Virus record (IMG/VR): IMGVR_UViG_3300013426_000033
Reading direction: 5' to 3' (one strand)
DNA: 64,000 bases
Source: an uncultured virus (IMG/VR IMGVR_UViG_3300013426_000033)
Lineage: Duplodnaviria > Heunggongvirae > Uroviricota > Caudoviricetes
Shown here: positions 8,768 through 38,630 of the stretch, piece after piece
Layout of the letters: every line of letters begins with the position of its first letter
How positions within the stretch are numbered: the stretch's first letter is position 1
Notes under the pieces: model-generated
Databases searched by the model: none
What the model saw: the letters and a program-made list of their open reading frames with translations, nothing else
What the model was told of the DNA's origin: nothing
Translations under genes and position numbers: made by a program

Positions 8768-8892
8768 TGGTGCGTCTGGAGAGATTCGAACTCTCGATAC
8801 CCGCATTATGGGGTTGGATATAAGTCTTGAACTTATCGAGGCCCTAATGCTATCCAACAAAGTGCGGTGCCTTACCACTTGGCCACAAACGC
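8768..8892 (-). tRNA. tRNA-Lys(UUU) with 50-nt tRNA-like insert (8809-8858)
   Basis: CCGCA-CT TT[insert]T AA-TGCGG; CCA. Confidence 0.8.
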
Positions 8893-8899
8893 ATAAATA

Positions 8900-9027
8900 C
8901 TAGAGACATTGTAGTTATGGACTCCTGCCTTGCCACTTGGCTACACTCTTCAACCGAAGGTGCTCGGATTCGAACCGAGGGATGGGAGTTTGGCTTATTA
9001 ACTTTCAAAATTGCTGTTAGTCTCTAC
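8900..9027 (-). ncRNA. ACAGCAA scaffold copy 8 with circularly permuted tRNA
   Basis: ACTCC, T arm CTCGG-TTCGAAT-CCGAG, loop-closed acceptor, D arm GCC-AAGTGGCAA-GGC, GGAGT. Confidence 0.85.
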
Positions 9028-9288: not shown

Positions 9289-9406
9289 CTAGACTCTTTT
9301 GCGTATTATTCACCACAGAGCGCCCTCTGACGAGAATCGAACTCGCTAATGATTGTTTTCAAGACAATTGTGTTAACCTTTTAAGGAATTTGCTGTAAGA
9401 GTCTAC
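9289..9406 (-). ncRNA. ACAGCAA scaffold copy 9 with tRNA permuted at the D loop
   Basis: ATTGT-CT TGA AA-ACAAT, T arm GCGAG-TTCGATT-CTCGT, CAGAG-GGCG-CTCTG. Confidence 0.8.
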
Positions 9407-10258: not shown

Positions 10259-10350
10259 CCCCCCATAATTGGATTCGAACCAACTTCCTCTCCCGATGTG
10301 GTGTTTACTCACTATCAGTTAATAAGAATGCTCCATTACACTAATGGGGA
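10259..10350 (-). ncRNA. tRNA-like RNA with elongated anticodon arm (pseudo-tRNA)
   Basis: CCCCAT/ATGGGG acceptor, D arm, T arm GTTGG-TTCGAAT-CCAAT; no canonical anticodon loop or CCA. Confidence 0.5.
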
Positions 10351-11662: not shown

Positions 11663-11796
11663 TGGAGCAAGATACGAGATTCGAACTCGCCCTTACGGTT
11701 TTGGTCCTTTAAGTAAGACTTGAACTTACATCAATGGTTTTTCATTAAACTATTAAAGGGGAAGACCGTCGTGCTAACCGCTAACACTAATCCTGC
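11663..11796 (-). tRNA. tRNA-Gly(UCC) with 58-nt tRNA-like insert (11702-11759)
   Basis: ACGGT-CT TCC[insert]AA-ACCGT; U73 CCA. Confidence 0.82.
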
Positions 11797-15934: not shown

Positions 15935-16384
15935 TTAATCTAATTCATAATCTTTTGTCCTACGTCTATATCTACATTCACGAACGAACCAATCTTGTAA
16001 TTCTTTTACAGTCATTGGCTGTGGAGGTGGCTTTAATTCATATTCTCCCTTTTCATTTAAGGGCTGACCAGTATAACAATAAGCTCTAACATAGCATTCT
16101 GCCGCAGGAACCATATCTTCTGGATTCTTCACATAATGGTCAGCTATAAATCCGACTGCAAATTTCCCAGCAGTAGTATAAGTCTTCACGTGCCTTGACA
16201 GACAAAGATACTATCCCCTTTCCATAGCCTTATTGTTATATTTATATTCTCCTAAAGCACAACCAACATCCCATAATTCCATATAATAATCTGTATCTGT
16301 AGGATAAATTTTTGTGCCTTTTACATTTAAGCCACTAAAGTCAATTAACTACTTTGCTCTTGCAATATTTTTAAACAGACTCAT
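15935..16384 (-). CDS. Hypothetical phage protein, possibly PD-(D/E)XK-like (two TAG=Gln)
   Basis: MSLFKNIARAK(TAG)LIDFSG...PTDTD...GEYK...G(TAG)Y continuous with track ORF. Confidence 0.65.
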
Positions 16385-17195
16385 TGGTAAATACCTTTTG
16401 ACTAATAAAGTCTTTGCCTTCTTCACTTGTTAAGATTGGCATTTCATAATCAAGAATCCATTTATAACGAGTAACTTCCTGACCATTCTTACCAATAACA
16501 GTAGTGGGAATACGATAAGCACAAGTACCACGTTTCTCTACTGTTGTATAATCGTTCCAGTTTACACCCTTTTCAGTAAACATCTTATCCTGCAATTTGG
16601 TTGTATTGATACCATGCATCTCGCGCTGAGAAAACAAAGTCTGAGCAACTGCCTGAATAGAGTTGCGAGTACAATCCTGCTGTCTCCACACAAAATAATT
16701 ATGTACTTCAAAAGCAGGGACAACAAATACTCGACTATCAAATGTAGGCATTTCTTGACCTTTGCGAACCATCTTCCAGTCATAAGAATCTTGGTCCATA
16801 TTATAGATATCCAAGGGTGTATCAATAATAGTATTCTCAGCAAAATAATTATTAAACCAAAGAGTACAAAGAGCAGCAGATGTGCTAACAATTTTCTGAA
16901 TGTTATTGTCAAACCAAGGCTGAGAATTTCTTTCACTCTGAATCATAACAAGAGAAATTTCATCAGACTCAACGTAACCGAATTTAACATTAGGAATAAT
17001 TTCACAAAGTTTAAGCATTGTCTGTTGCATGGTTTTAACGAAAATAGGGTCAAAAGGCTTCTTCATACCACGACAAAATGAATGAAAGTGAGCGCCGTCA
17101 TTTCTCATAATAACAGGAAGATTCTCAGGAAGATAATTACGATATTTATTTTCGTAAGCTCCTTTCATTCTGTCACTTAAAGTCTTATACTCCAT
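16371..17195 (-). CDS. thg1: Thg1-like 3'-5' nucleotidyltransferase (tRNA-His guanylyltransferase family)
   Basis: RNDGAHFHSF, KPFD, SDEIS, FDSR, YFVWRQQDCTRNS, KRGT. Confidence 0.92.
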   Translation of the reverse strand: MEYKTLSDRMKGAYENKYRNYLPENLPVIMRNDGAHFHSFCRGMKKPFDPIFVKTMQQTMLKLCEIIPNVKFGYVESDEISLVMIQSERNSQPWFDNNIQKIVSTSAALCTLWFNNYFAENTIIDTPLDIYNMDQDSYDWKMVRKGQEMPTFDSRVFVVPAFEVHNYFVWRQQDCTRNSIQAVAQTLFSQREMHGINTTKLQDKMFTEKGVNWNDYTTVEKRGTCAYRIPTTVIGKNGQEVTRYKWILDYEMPILTSEEGKDFISQKVFTNESV

Positions 17196-18425: not shown

Positions 18426-19670
18426 TTATTTAATCTCCACTAAATATCGAATAGTTACTTGGTCAGGACGATAGAAAATAATTTCAGGATTGCGAAGCAT
18501 TCCCTTTTCAGGAGAAGCATAAACGCAATGACAAGGAGGATTCTTTTTCTGAAGCACATCAAAATTAAAATGATAACATTCAGAAGTATGCTCATAAACA
18601 GTATAAGGATTACCATAAGCCACTTCAAAAATACCCATAAATCCAGTGTTGCTATTTCCTCTTGCCCAATAAGAACCGCTGACACTTGTATAACCAATGC
18701 TCTTTCGAGCCAAAGTGCTAAAATATAAGCCATCGCTGAACATTGAACCTGTATAGACAGCATTTGCAGGACGAATCTTCAAGCCCATCTTAAGAATGTT
18801 AAAGAAATTTTGAGACCTACTACCATGCCACATGAACTTAGTATCTGTAATATTATAATCCTTAACAAAAGAATTAAATGCTTTGTTAGTCTCTAAATTA
18901 TTAACACTCCATGCTTTTACGAATCTATCAGAATCTCGCCCAAGCATCTTTTTAATTCTAGCAATTTCATTCTGAGTAACATCTTCCATAGTGATACCCA
19001 TCTTCTGCAAAATGCTTTCAGAAGCTTTAATCTCAGAATCAGTGTCGGCAATTTTTGCCTTGGGCTTATAAACCTGACCAGCCATAGTATCTAGCAAACT
19101 CTGTTCTTCAGAAAGCTTATTATCATATTCAGAAGAATTAGAAACAAGGCAATCAGAGACACGTTTCATCTTACGAGGAACAATAATAAATAATTCATTT
19201 AAATTCTTATTAAACTCCTCAACAGACCAATCTTTATAATTCGCTGCAATATAATCAATTTTTTCCTGAGCAGCGTCAATCATAGCCTGAGTAACAGCTT
19301 CGGCACGAACAGAATAAGCGGATTGAATAGTCTTATTAGCATAATCCCAAAGACGCTTAATAATTTCACGAACAGACAAATTCTGAACAAGGCCAAATTC
19401 ATCTACACCGTTAGACCCATCTTCAATCTTAGAATCTACAATAATTTCCTGCATCAAATCAGAACGGTCAACATAACCCTTCTTCAATTTAGAGGAGAGC
19501 GTAGAGTTCCATTTGGACATAGGATAAATTTTAGTCTGAGGAGTTGCGCCAACACGACCGAACTCTACTGTGAAAGTGTCTCCATTTGAAGTCATACGAT
19601 AATACTTATTTGAATCAACGCCCTTATTATCAGGACTGACAAAGATTAAATATTTGGGAGTATAATCCAT
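18426..19670 (-). CDS. PARP-like ADP-ribosyltransferase with WGR domain
   Basis: NKYY..FGRVG (WGR); WHGS, GSMFSDGLYF, KSIGY, NPEIIFY (H-Y-E triad). Confidence 0.9.
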   Translation of the reverse strand: MDYTPKYLIFVSPDNKGVDSNKYYRMTSNGDTFTVEFGRVGATPQTKIYPMSKWNSTLSSKLKKGYVDRSDLMQEIIVDSKIEDGSNGVDEFGLVQNLSVREIIKRLWDYANKTIQSAYSVRAEAVTQAMIDAAQEKIDYIAANYKDWSVEEFNKNLNELFIIVPRKMKRVSDCLVSNSSEYDNKLSEEQSLLDTMAGQVYKPKAKIADTDSEIKASESILQKMGITMEDVTQNEIARIKKMLGRDSDRFVKAWSVNNLETNKAFNSFVKDYNITDTKFMWHGSRSQNFFNILKMGLKIRPANAVYTGSMFSDGLYFSTLARKSIGYTSVSGSYWARGNSNTGFMGIFEVAYGNPYTVYEHTSECYHFNFDVLQKKNPPCHCVYASPEKGMLRNPEIIFYRPDQVTIRYLVEIK

Positions 19671-19772: not shown

Positions 19773-20489
19773 TTACTGGTAGCAAAAAGCAATATTAATC
19801 TTATAGCCCTCGGAAATTTCTCCTGCTTCATCAGCTTCATTAATTGCATTAGCAAAAGTGCGAATAATCATAGAACGTACATCTTCCCAATTTAATTTGC
19901 CCTTCCCACAACCAATAAAAGGCATAGCAAGATAAGAAATTTCCTCATTAACACAATACTGTGCAAGGTCTTCAATACAATGTTCAAGATTTGTCATAGT
20001 AATAGATTCATATTTCCTATTTGCAATCATAAGCAAAAACAGATTCCGAATCCAAATTGCTTCGCCAACACATCTGTCTTCATAATCATCTTCAACCTTT
20101 TCAGTAAAATGATAATAGGACTCAAGGCGTCTTGCTGTATCGCTACCCAAAGAAAGGTCGGCAGGAATACCATAACAAATGTTGTAATACGGAGGCATAT
20201 CAAGCAAATCTTTTTGTACCTCTTCATAATTTACATAAGTCTTATTAAGGTTGTCTTCATCATAGTCTTCATCAGCGAACTCAAGTTCACCATCATGCAT
20301 GACAAGAGGACACCCACAATCAGGGCAGTGCATTACTTTTTGATTCAAAACAGAAACATAACCAGAAGAAGCAATGAGTTTACCATTTTCATCAGTAGAG
20401 GCAACTGCGGTAGTAAAATAATCTTTGTCCTGAGTAGAAGTTACCTTTGGCTCATCGACCTTGTAATTGCGACTAAAAATATTAGCCAT
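19773..20489 (-). CDS. Protein with degenerate C-terminal macrodomain
   Basis: ADLSLG, LAMPFIGCGKGKLNW; N-terminal CPDCG. Confidence 0.7.
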   Translation of the reverse strand: MANIFSRNYKVDEPKVTSTQDKDYFTTAVASTDENGKLIASSGYVSVLNQKVMHCPDCGCPLVMHDGELEFADEDYDEDNLNKTYVNYEEVQKDLLDMPPYYNICYGIPADLSLGSDTARRLESYYHFTEKVEDDYEDRCVGEAIWIRNLFLLMIANRKYESITMTNLEHCIEDLAQYCVNEEISYLAMPFIGCGKGKLNWEDVRSMIIRTFANAINEADEAGEISEGYKINIAFCYQ

Positions 20490-30683: not shown

Positions 30684-31736
30684 TTATTCCTTAATTAAAT
30701 ATTTGGTAGTTTTAGGATTTAAATCTTCTATGGTTATTTTATGCAATTTACTAAAAGGAATTCTAATCAGCGGAATATTATTGCTTAAACAAAAATCGTT
30801 TTTTATTTTATCATATTCCTATCTTTTTTCAAATTTTCCATCTTTGTCCCATTTAGTGTTGTGCTTGTAATAATGTTGCGACCCATCAAATTCTATAATA
30901 TAAAAGCTATTCCCCTAATATACAATAAAATCAAAAAAAGCAAGATGTCCTGATGGAAAACGCAATTTATAACTTTGATTGTTCTTAAATTCTATTTTAT
31001 TATCTCTTAAAATTTGAGAAATCTCTTTTTCTCCTATAGATTTAATACAGCCACAGCTCTAAGTCCATTGCGAAGTCAACTTGCTTGCTCTTACTCCTAT
31101 TTTATTCCCACAATCACACAAGCAATTCCAATAAACTTCGCCACATTGCAAGGTTAATTGTTCATCTATATTTATTGCGGTTAAATTTCCAAATCTTTGC
31201 CCAGTTAAATCACGTCTTTTTTCTATGCCCCTCTCTTTTTTCAAACAACCGCAAGATTTCGAATGCCCCTAAGTTAAATTAGATGCTAATTTTAAAACGG
31301 GCTATGAACCACAATCACACTAACATAAACACAAGTGTTTCCCTTTTTCCATATGGTCAGAAATGACTGTTAATTTTCCAAATTTCTATCCAATTAAACT
31401 TTCCATCTCAGAGCCTTTATTAGCTAAACACCCGCAGCTTTTTATTCTTCCATGCATTAAATCTGTACGACGCAAAGCTAAATTTTTCTTCCCACAAGAA
31501 CAATCACAAATTACGAAAATAGAAAAACCATCATCTTCCACTACAGTTAATTTCCCATAAATATTCCCTATAAGATTTGTATATTCTTTTTTTAAATTGT
31601 TCTATTTAACAAAACGATAAATTAAATCTGAGCAGCAATTTAATTCTTGACTTATTTTTTTACAAGTCCAATGTTTATAGCAATAGTAGTTTTTTATTAA
31701 TGACTTTTCTTCGTTAGAAAAGACTCTCTTATTCAT
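30684..31736 (-). CDS. Homing endonuclease-like protein with repeated CxCxCG modules (many TAG=Gln)
   Basis: Open from ATG 31736 to TAA 30684 with TAG read-through; GQRFGNLT, SCGC repeats, IIEFDGSQH. Confidence 0.8.
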
Positions 31737-36269: not shown

Positions 36270-37628
36270 TTACCCTTCCACCATAGAGTTTTTAAAACGC
36301 TTTAAGTTGTTTAGGGCTTTTGTAATTTCAGAATATTTGTAGCAAAACTGTTTCTTCAACAAGAAATCGTTTTCCTGTCCAAGATATTTGGTCTTTGTTC
36401 TGCCCTTTAATACTTTAGGAAGTTTGTCCATCCAAAGCATTGCTTCTTTCTTATCATTCCAAAAGTCTACACACTCTGCATTTCCTTTAATTAAAATTTT
36501 ATCAATTAACTCTTTATAGAGATTAAGATATTCATGAACAGTATTGTAATACTGCATAATTAATTCTCTATACGCATCAGGACACTTCGCTAAAAAATCA
36601 TCAAATCTGTCTTCGTGAATAGCATTAACAACTGCATTAGGAGAAATATTTTTAGATAAAGCTTTATGCATCAGGACATAATCCGATGTTTTAATTTTAC
36701 ATCTAAAATGATTTTTGTATCCATCAACCATATCAATTACCCAACCTTCTTTTTCAGAAGAAAGATAATTGTCAGTATCAGCTAAAATGCTAAATAAAGT
36801 AGCATTATAATACCATTGAGTCATTTTAGAATCATATTCCTCAGCCATATCACTCAGAATATCAAAAGAAACTTCTTTGCCGTCCTTAACATCTCTTGCC
36901 GCAAGTAAATATAAACCTTCTTGAGATTCATCGTACTTAACCACAATGGGGTTTTTAGGAGAAATATACTCAAAAATAAAAGTATAATCAGGATAATCCT
37001 TAATTAATTCTTTCTGTCCATCAGATAAAAGTTTATACCCTTCTGCAAGTCTCCAAGATTCAGCGGGGTCTAATGCCTGAGAACCAGAACCCAAGATTCG
37101 GTCTTCATCTGCAATATATCTATACTGCTGATAAGAACCATCAAGCTTGTTGGTAATAAAAACTTCATGAGCAAAATTATACTTAGACCCAATATTTTTA
37201 GGAGACCAATCACCGTCATCCTCACCGTAGTTTTTAAACTTTGCTAAAGATGCCAGAGCAATTTCATCATTCTTTAAATCAAAAACACAAGAACGACATT
37301 CCCTATAAAGACCATCATATAATTCAAAGAAAGAACTTAAATTATAATCATCAGATAATTCAATAAAACCTTTATACTTAAATAATACATAATGGTCATA
37401 ACAAGTAATCTGAAGAGGGTCAAAAATCTTGTTTAACTTCTCATTAAGTTTAGGAGTAATATTTCCCCATACTTCAAAAACTCTATCAAGCCAATCGTTA
37501 AAATTATAATTTTCAGGACAAGGTTCATTGTTAAGGAGAGTATAAGACTGGATATATTTTCTCTTTACAGTCATAACATACTGATAAAGAGGATGCCAAG
37601 TAAAATTTTTATTGAAACTAAATTTCAT
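36270..37628 (-). CDS. T4 Rnl1-like RNA ligase
   Basis: RECR, KFKN, KLDGS, FEYISP, EGWV, KIK. Confidence 0.85.
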   Translation of the reverse strand: MKFSFNKNFTWHPLYQYVMTVKRKYIQSYTLLNNEPCPENYNFNDWLDRVFEVWGNITPKLNEKLNKIFDPLQITCYDHYVLFKYKGFIELSDDYNLSSFFELYDGLYRECRSCVFDLKNDEIALASLAKFKNYGEDDGDWSPKNIGSKYNFAHEVFITNKLDGSYQQYRYIADEDRILGSGSQALDPAESWRLAEGYKLLSDGQKELIKDYPDYTFIFEYISPKNPIVVKYDESQEGLYLLAARDVKDGKEVSFDILSDMAEEYDSKMTQWYYNATLFSILADTDNYLSSEKEGWVIDMVDGYKNHFRCKIKTSDYVLMHKALSKNISPNAVVNAIHEDRFDDFLAKCPDAYRELIMQYYNTVHEYLNLYKELIDKILIKGNAECVDFWNDKKEAMLWMDKLPKVLKGRTKTKYLGQENDFLLKKQFCYKYSEITKALNNLKRFKNSMVEG

Positions 37629-37664: not shown

Positions 37665-38630
37665 TTATTCCTCAGAAGTTCCGCTTGCAATCTTATCACA
37701 CTCATTAAACAGAAAAAGTTTATCAAGGTTTTCTTTTCCCATAATCTTTTCCCATTTAGCTTTAGATTTTTCAGTTTCAAGGAAGAAAGGAAGCATATGG
37801 AAGTTAATATAAAACAGACATTTTAAAATGTCATCCATATTAGTAAATCCAATACAATCCAGATTTGCTAAAAGGTCATATGTTCCTATATTATGATGAC
37901 TATAATATCTATAATCACCAGAACCATCTTCTTTCGGCTGTCCAGTAGTTAATTTACCTAAATCATGAATCTGTGCGGCTCTATAAAGAACCTTATCATC
38001 AGTTCTCTTAGCTACTTCTTCAGCACAAATCCTACAATGCTCATCTAAAGTATATTTATGATGATGAGTCTTCTGGTCAAAACCTTTCATCAAGTTCGTA
38101 ATATAATCATCATCAGTAGTCCAATTGGACTGAGGAACAATTACTTCAAACTGATTAAAGTTCCAACCAATCAAATTGATAATATCAAAACCTTCCTCAT
38201 AGAAAGGAATCTCAAACTTACCAACCTGTCTATCAATTACTTCTTCAGGAACAGTACGAGTTCTTGCTTTGTTCTGTCGCTTACAAACTGCCACAGGAGT
38301 AGTCATAACATAAGCAACCTTATTGACATTCTCTCTATTGCGAACAATATCAAGTAAACTTCTACGAGACTTAACATTAATATTAGTTGCATCAACAATA
38401 ATATTCATCTTGTCAATGCAATTATTAATACGACGGCGGACTTCTTTAAAGACTTCCTCATTATGAGTCTGGTCATTTACATCTCCAAAAACAGTTTCAC
38501 GAATTTCATCCGACGAAATAATCATTGTAGGCTGACCCATTTTAGTCAACATGTTTTTAAGATTCTGAGCAAGAGTAGACTTACCACTTGCCACAACTCC
38601 AATCATCATCATAAAATTCGTGTGTTCCAT
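37665..38630 (-). CDS. Polynucleotide-kinase-like P-loop + HD-domain protein
   Basis: GVVASGKST, SSDEIR, DATN; HH..TL.EH, HDLGK, HM. Confidence 0.85.
   Translation of the reverse strand: MEHTNFMMMIGVVASGKSTLAQNLKNMLTKMGQPTMIISSDEIRETVFGDVNDQTHNEEVFKEVRRRINNCIDKMNIIVDATNINVKSRRSLLDIVRNRENVNKVAYVMTTPVAVCKRQNKARTRTVPEEVIDRQVGKFEIPFYEEGFDIINLIGWNFNQFEVIVPQSNWTTDDDYITNLMKGFDQKTHHHKYTLDEHCRICAEEVAKRTDDKVLYRAAQIHDLGKLTTGQPKEDGSGDYRYYSHHNIGTYDLLANLDCIGFTNMDDILKCLFYINFHMLPFFLETEKSKAKWEKIMGKENLDKLFLFNECDKIASGTSEE

Follow-up and report, generated by a model that had tools for sequence, protein, structure and literature searches.

The tRNA-Lys(UUU) gene of an uncultured gut-type phage is interrupted, between U35 and U36 of its anticodon, by a 50-nt insert that imitates the acceptor stem, T arm and CCA end of a tRNA and, since the same design recurs in many related viruses, this insert looks like an undescribed kind of intron. 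The gene lies on the minus strand of a 64,000-nt stretch of DNA (hereafter the window), which is a fragment of a large low-GC phage (about 33%). We consider it likely that the insert is removed at the RNA level, and fairly probable that it is a tRNA-mimic intron for which RNase P would make the 5' cut and a nuclease the cut after CCA, the exons being then joined by a phage ligase. With a little less assurance, we lean towards regarding these elements as a distinct intron class, apart from group I, group II, spliceosomal and bulge-helix-bulge (BHB) introns, whose spectrum would run from nested tRNAs through 44-nt mimics to homing forms, and which would be widespread in large gut phages.

Anatomy and borders of the insert

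Read from 5' to 3', the insert consists of an acceptor strand, a linker, a T arm, the second acceptor strand, a discriminator C and CCA (Table 1). When the exons are joined without it, the loop reads CU-UUU-AA, which places the insertion site at 35/36. The insert is a genuine feature of the gene: the acceptor and T-arm element reported at this site in the preliminary description is borne out by the sequence and by Rfam, which scored the whole of 8771-8892 (55.1 bits) as a tRNA whose anticodon loop contains a large insertion. The linker reported there is present as well, but it measures 15 nt, and reaches the 13 nt originally given only when the two bases at tRNA positions 8-9 are not counted. 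The insert was found, identical or with one change, in 5 of the 28 viral loci retrieved by a pattern for the 5' exon, and in the five aligned relatives the linker segments AGC, UU and GGGCCU are all conserved, possibly as the remnant of a D loop.

Table 1. Positions in the window of the split tRNA genes, the parts of the Lys insert, the candidate splicing enzymes and neighbouring elements
Feature	Position	Strand	Remarks
5' exon of tRNA-Lys(UUU), positions 1-35	8859-8892	minus	ends in CCGCA CUUU
50-nt tRNA-mimic insert (putative intron), site 35/36	8809-8858	minus	
Insert acceptor stem, 5' strand	8852-8858	minus	GUUGGAU; 7 bp; G+1 is the putative RNase P site
Linker in place of D and anticodon arms	8837-8851	minus	AGCAUUAGGGCCUCG; 15 nt
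Insert T arm	8820-8836	minus	AUAAG-UUCAAGA-CUUAU; 5 bp, UUCAAGA loop
Insert acceptor 3' strand, discriminator and CCA	8809-8819	minus	AUCCAAC 8813-8819; C 8812; CCA 8809-8811; 3' border after final A
3' exon of tRNA-Lys(UUU)	8768-8808	minus	starts with UAA UGCGG; own CCA encoded
tRNA-Gly(UCC), site 36/37	11663-11796	minus	58-nt insert 11702-11759
tRNA-Thr(UGU), site 34/35	5896-6059	minus	88-nt insert 5938-6025
tRNA-Ile(UAU), site 36/37	3758-3893	minus	59-nt insert 3798-3856
T4 Rnl1-like RNA ligase, candidate exon ligase	36270-37628	minus	motif KLDGS; PF09511 E 1e-12; TIGR02308 below cut-off
P-loop polynucleotide kinase fused to HD domain, candidate end-healing enzyme	37665-38630	minus	adjacent to ligase
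Circularly permuted tRNA-like RNAs	about 8905-9000, 8310-8400, 9300-9385	minus	
Thg1, PARP-WGR, macro-like and Acb2/Tad1-like genes (listed jointly)	16371-17195, 18426-19670, 19773-20489, 1100-1465		

Thermodynamic folding alone gives no preference for the nested Lys fold, which at -31.7 kcal/mol lies 4.7 kcal/mol above the minimum free energy structure (-36.4 kcal/mol); the precursor has a z of -1.5, and its inner acceptor stem a pairing probability of 0.18. The Ile and Gly precursors, unlike that of Lys, adopt the nested fold.

Three further tRNA genes of the window carry inserts, and in all four genes the removal of the segment from +1 to CCA leaves an anticodon loop of 7 nt. The nested structure detector found these 4 genes in the tRNA array of the window (about 2.6-14.8 kb, minus strand), as opposed to none in 100 dinucleotide shuffles of the array. 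Their anticodons, Lys(UUU), Gly(UCC), Thr(UGU) and Ile(UAU), are missing from the 16 plain tRNAs given by ARAGORN, which made no call of the intron-bearing tRNA-Lys(UUU) gene and missed all four insert-bearing genes. As standard tRNA finders miss such genes, phage tRNA inventories would be undercounted, notably for Lys(UUU) and Ile(UAU).

Alleles with and without insert were compared among the nearest record (G001) and the relatives G005-G029. The closest complete relative among the records compared is G005 (216 kb), whose intron-less Gly and Gln genes are identical to the joined exons of the window Gly gene and of the Gln gene of G009, respectively; the Glu genes of G006 and G007, with and without insert, are near-identical, and G033 carries, with no insert, a Lys anticodon arm (CCGCA-CUUUUAA-UGCGG) identical to that of the window. 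An intron-less junction of 22 nt was found among the fetched loci for 16 of the 75 genes tested, which represent about 8 independent families, some of them weak and matching unrelated tRNA bodies; all 16 fit a cut from +1 to CCA, and none fits any non-equivalent alternative out of the nine alternatives tried. These allele pairs indicate that the borders of the insert are tRNA position +1 and the CCA end, even though exact borders could record the way of insertion and not that of removal. Shifted cuts would yield Ile(UAU) or Gln(UUG), both already encoded in the window. In the 54 genes kept by a strict filter, which also threw out real Gly and Glu genes, Y32, U33 and R37 are always present and the two loop parts can always sum to 7 nt, across four sites. 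ARAGORN is no guide to the borders, because it accepted 51-54 of these 54 genes after almost any in-silico cut.

In the same slot, relatives with a different Lys body either have no insert (G014) or carry one of 67 nt at 34/35 that ends in CCG (G022 and G023), and the alleles taken together indicate that the insert has been gained and lost between close relatives. In the tRNA-Ile(UAU) genes of L003, L022 and L352 (G007, G008 and G023), the insert sits at 32/33, not at 36/37, in the same slot and in a different tRNA body, which may be read as one gene invaded independently again, or swapped.

A class of tRNA-mimic inserts

Viral, metagenome and genome collections were scanned with patterns and the matches passed through the structure detector, which removed many raw matches that were plain tRNAs or chance; the class counts given here are those among the matches listed. 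At least 119 distinct insert-bearing genes were kept from the fetched phage and metagenome loci, and at least 111 distinct inserts of 44-907 nt are found among the matches listed. In 117 of the 119 genes listed, the discriminator is followed by a 3-nt tail (CCA in 112, CAA in 2, CCG in 2 and UCA in 1), the share of CCA being inflated because the patterns used to fetch most loci required it; the two others end at the discriminator and with a 1-nt tail. The former, the sole such gene among the matches listed, holds a Lys insert with a window-like linker (L353:7616-7737, in G029) and may be a classical RNase Z-type variant.

The insertion sites in the 117 genes listed are 35/36 (52), 36/37 (34), 34/35 (29) and 32/33 (2). 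Host tRNAs span at least 15 anticodons, headed among the matches listed by Lys UUU (26 of 117), Ile UAU (20) and Gly UCC (17), in a search whose patterns are biased towards tRNAs that have A37-A38 and a short variable arm. In the genome collection, 5 of the 120 loci among the matches listed are true nests, and these lie in MAG contigs of Bacilli, Acutalibacteraceae and Paludibacteraceae, which may be phage-derived.

Four inserts among the matches listed are complete, canonical tRNAs with an anticodon unlike that of their host: Gly within Asn (twice), Asn within Lys, and a CUA suppressor within Ile. Most inserts are degenerate and have kept the T arm and a beginning that resembles a D arm. While acceptor stem, T arm and CCA are retained, the middle of the insert may be anything between 9 nt and an ORF of 800 nt. 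The Lys insert of 50 nt, which contains no ORF, belongs to the reduced forms of this class. It had originally been proposed to define the minimal excision signal, of which a part holds: the insert is a mimic of the tRNA top half, its ends coincide with the excision borders given by the intron-less alleles, and for the 5' cut RNase P is the obvious candidate. However, it is not the minimal form, as inserts of 44-45 nt with linkers of 9-10 nt exist, together with a 47-nt relative without CCA.

In the five Lys-type inserts all 12 pairs are kept (60 of 60 cells paired), with two two-sided changes, from G-C to A-U in the acceptor stem and from U-A to C-G in the T stem; the covariation score was reached in 26 of 500 shuffles, so that the covariation of this subfamily alone is modest. 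Across 52 sequence clusters, 4-6 pair types are found at every acceptor position, the first acceptor pair is G-C, C-G or G-U in 51, and the base at -1 is U in 40, which is no surprise because anticodons are U-rich. The outer tRNA bodies have perfect stems in 86 of 103 cases, a perfection that for inner and outer stems alike is partly built in because the detector partly requires pairing, and CCA is encoded in 94 of 103. No intact Lys(UUU) pattern was found in any of the five intron-bearing records at least 96% complete. Taken together, these patterns indicate that the acceptor stem, T arm and CCA of the insert are under selection and that the split host tRNA is intact.

Judged from their sequences, the inserts form a conserved and widespread class that fails the tests of the known intron types. 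Group I introns occur in bacterial tRNA anticodon loops, some of them with homing endonucleases, and share with the window class this location, a precise removal that restores the tRNA and an optional endonuclease ORF; however, only the window class is a tRNA mimic. Rfam gave no group I match in the window or in the ORF-bearing loci L151 and L153, the P3-P7 core is absent (the 50 bases of the Lys insert being too short for it), and in place of the terminal G of group I introns the end is CCA in 112 of the 119 genes listed, with a CCG tail in only 2. Group II introns, with their GUGYG start, AY end and domain V, were rejected likewise, as the starts vary with the acceptor stem and Rfam gave no match. 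Archaeal and eukaryal tRNA introns depend on cutting of the BHB by EndA and on ligation by RtcB or Trl1. They resemble the window class in their removal from the anticodon loop by cutting and ligation, in their variable positions and in the possible presence of an ORF. However, the recognition element of the window class would be the acceptor stem, T arm and CCA. Folds inspected by eye contain no bulge-helix-bulge, the junctions lying on either side of an internal loop that lacks a central helix of 4 bp; moreover, the canonical 37/38 site is used by none of the 117 genes listed, and RtcB was found in none of 28 intron-bearing records.

The closest published relatives are the "enigmatic" tRNA introns of the Lak megaphages, one of which (Thr UGU) possibly encodes a tRNA (Devoto et al. 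2019, PMC6784885). As in the window, these are anticodon-loop inserts of phages with intron-plus and intron-less alleles (PMC6784885), and the Lak phages, like that of the window, are gut phages that have recoded TAG and encode a T4-like RNA ligase. According to Table S6 of that work, the Lak introns place a tRNA-like acceptor and T arm in the anticodon loop, as the window insert does. By eye, however, the Tyr, Phe, Thr and Gly introns of that table begin with a hairpin leader of roughly 30 nt and end near the discriminator without CCA, whereas the window inserts start at +1 and end with CCA, and for this reason the Lak introns look like a sister type. The accessible part of PMC6784885 gives no mechanism, class definition or ORF-bearing member. 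In the open-access literature, with subscription journals and bioRxiv supplements outside the scope of the search, no description of the class was found beyond this study, and the word "intron" does not occur in PMC7162821 or PMC10879173.

Excision, ligation and the competing explanations

The intron would bring no splicing catalyst of its own: by posing as a pre-tRNA, it would be excised by end-processing nucleases, and a phage repair ligase would close the tRNA. RNase P is guided by the acceptor-T helix, the T loop, a 3' NCCA and a strong first pair, and the insert offers a 7-bp acceptor on a 5-bp T stem, a T loop, CCA and a strong first pair; the discriminator of the Lys insert is C, not a purine. 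We are moderately confident in the RNase P route, in which the host enzyme would read the 5' exon as a leader and cut at +1, exon 1 keeping its 3'-OH. An endonuclease would then read the 3' exon as a trailer and cut after CCA. The tRNA halves would stay paired through the anticodon stem, and 3'-OH and 5'-P ends held in this way are a substrate of ATP-dependent RNA ligases; that of the phage would join them, with the kinase healing an end where needed. Mimics of tRNA recruit RNase P and RNase Z in mascRNA and menRNA, in mitochondrial tRNA punctuation and in engineered tRNA-gRNA arrays, where a longer RNA is likewise cut at both ends of the mimic. However, signals of the mascRNA/menRNA type release their flanks, whereas the flanks of the window insert would be religated, and the 3' cut would come after an encoded CCA.

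The enzymes were surveyed in 28 intron-bearing phage records of more than 100 kb and in 8 control records. An ATP-dependent RNA ligase and a polynucleotide kinase are both present in 27 of the 28 intron-bearing records and in 3 of the 8 controls (a ligase, with or without kinase, in 5 of 8), a co-occurrence that is suggestive only, given the relatedness of the records and the small, unmatched set of controls. These enzymes serve tRNA repair in any case. Rnl1 is found in 12 records and a DRB0094-like ligase in 14 others, with a further ligase of that type in G026; the kinase is present in 27, and one 84%-complete record has neither. No nests were found in the 4 controls scanned end to end. When the complete protein sets of 9 intron-bearing records and 4 controls were compared with each other, the kinase was the sole non-homing family present in all nine, and no shared nuclease candidate besides homing-type ORFs was found across these nine records. 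The same types of healing and sealing enzymes act in T4, where Pnkp and Rnl1 repair the anticodon loop of tRNA-Lys broken by the host nuclease PrrC at 33/34 (PMC3025547), whereas in the window the break would be programmed by the insert itself at 35/36.

The model is weakest at the nuclease that would make the 3' cut. The best candidate would be an RNase Z cutting after CCA, as the tRNase Z of T. maritima does, even though CCA generally inhibits other RNase Z enzymes (PMC3161902). The second would be a beta-CASP RNase (TTHA0252/CPSF73-like) limited to the clade of the window, where it is found in 8 of the 28 records. This ribonuclease (L332:1399-2847 in G014, and 7 further clade records) resembles TTHA0252, Cas14 and CPSF73.

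Rather unlikely, in our estimation, is that the insert is spliced with one or both cuts made by another nuclease, of phage or host, that recognizes the tRNA shape, such as this beta-CASP enzyme or a metal-independent RNase that leaves 5'-OH ends, or by attack of the 3'-OH of exon 1 after CCA. The ends left by RNase P and RNase Z need no healing, and yet the kinase is present in 27 of 28 records and in all nine that were fully compared; being near-universal, it leaves room for a cut that leaves a 5'-OH. Also in favour of another nuclease are the TTHA0252/CPSF73-like RNase encoded in the clade of the window and the hairpin leader of the Lak introns, which precedes the tRNA-like part, so that their 5' border would not be an RNase P site (Table S6, by eye). 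However, the allele pairs place the 5' border exactly at +1, the first pairs are of the G/C kind, the beta-CASP gene is absent from 20 of the 28 records, and neither group I nor group II models match the window or the two ORF-bearing members.

That the insert is not spliced at all, whether as a scar or selfish cassette at the DNA level in a tRNA gene that is dead, or as part of an unspliced RNA acting as a tRNA decoy, seems improbable. Phage tRNAs are often dispensable, and the presence/absence polymorphism and endonuclease-like ORFs fit a mobility at the DNA level. The expression material, assembled Logan contigs from 4 of 13 runs, contains an RNA-library contig covering 8013-8894 that retains the Lys insert, though it may be DNA or precursor; no Lys exon-exon junction was found among the joints listed, and no spliced RNA was seen in these contigs. 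A joint skipping 11702-11759, the Gly insert, was found in X3 and in X1, which is probably DNA (entered as "between: not known"), and is no evidence of splicing because DNA alleles without the Gly insert exist. Against an unspliced insert stand the absence of any second Lys(UUU) gene among those found, the compensatory changes in exons (L385 and L426), the lack of target duplication and terminal hairpins, and borders that fall on tRNA-processing sites at four loop positions. A replacement-tRNA cassette was rejected: the Lys insert has no anticodon and so replaces nothing, the complete inner tRNAs differ in anticodon from their host in 4 of 4 cases and are therefore no replacements, and the shell is intact.

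The link to PrrC-type anticodon nucleases drawn in the preliminary description was not supported. Lys(UUU) is the commonest host among the matches listed (26 of 117), these phages carry Pnk and Rnl repair genes, and phage tRNAs have been proposed to evade host tRNases (PMC10264068), but it is very improbable that the insert serves to defeat such nucleases, either by a precursor that hides the Lys loop or by a freed, CCA-ended mini-tRNA acting as decoy, since PrrC cuts 5' of the wobble base, that is, at 33/34 (PMC3025547), a site used by none of the 117 genes listed though the search patterns permitted it, at least 15 anticodons are hosts, the loop would be ordinary once spliced, and close relatives carry intron-less alleles.

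If excision by RNase P and a 3'-end nuclease followed by phage ligation is true, it would represent a new splicing route in bacterial cells and provide a testable mechanism for the "enigmatic" Lak introns, phage Pnk and Rnl genes would gain a housekeeping role besides anti-defence repair, and complete nested forms would give two tRNAs from one gene. A removable cassette of 44-50 nt tolerating large cargo would also be a possible tool, for instance for conditional tRNA expression.

Origin, mobility and genomic setting

The class probably goes back to real tRNA genes that lay within anticodon loops, as the existence of complete inner tRNAs suggests an origin in nested genes whose maturation freed the host halves. 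Its spread probably takes place by homing, through members with an ORF or through free-standing endonucleases nearby. An ORF of about 180-280 codons, endonuclease-like, is present in 20 of the 111 inserts listed, with GIY-YIG- and HNH-like motifs labelled by eye only, and in all 20 the stop codon of this ORF falls inside the T stem of the insert, its first base lying 27 nt from the 3' end. Moreover, an ORF lies directly upstream of the window-type Lys allele in 4 of 7 clade records, as opposed to 0 of 3 with the other allele. The patchy presence, the ORF-bearing members and this upstream ORF all suggest homing. On this view, a short insert would also shield its own gene from the endonuclease, as in collaborative homing.

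Several other features of the window deserve mention. A free-standing GIY-YIG gene (2878-3660; Pfam, split over two ORFs) and a gene HNH-like by eye (4958-5836) adjoin the intron-bearing Ile and Thr genes. BLAST against the INPHARED phages gave only 3 short generic tRNA matches, and the phage therefore has no cultured relative. ARAGORN gave a CUA suppressor tRNA at 2635-2709, and window ORFs such as 4958-5836 and 30684-31736 contain TAG read-through, which together indicate a code-15 phage; the TAG codons are concentrated in endonuclease-like and structural-looking genes. Beside the tRNA array are genes for a Thg1 tRNA-His guanylyltransferase, a PARP with a WGR domain and a macro-like domain, plus a weak Acb2/Tad1-like match. 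Within the array, the "Ile(GAU)" called by ARAGORN (10259-10350) is an RNA of distorted tRNA-like shape (22.6 bits with Rfam), and tRNA-Arg(CCG) (4605-4680), with a loop of 8 nt and UUGG as its T loop, is conserved among relatives in these features.

Ten matches to AGACNCTNACAGCAA, with up to 2 mismatches, lie on the minus strand between 2850 and 10905 (for example at 9011-9025, 8408-8422 and 9390-9404), where 1.5 would be expected. Most of them form the first strand of a stem whose second strand is a complementary GTCTA/GTCTC segment located 60-130 nt downstream, and these stems enclose circularly permuted tRNA-like RNAs in which the 3' half precedes the 5' half. The permuted RNA directly upstream of tRNA-Lys has a compensatory anticodon-stem change in G014, G022 and G023, and the copy at 8302-8400 gave a weak YrlA Y-RNA-like score (37.4 bits, below cut-off). 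No TROVE domain was found in the five records searched. A DUF2828/DUF7788/VWA protein, which we take to be Ro60-like (L469:3414-5177 in G005), is present in 5 of 9 intron-bearing records and in 0 of 4 controls, and is a possible partner of the permuted tRNA-like RNAs.
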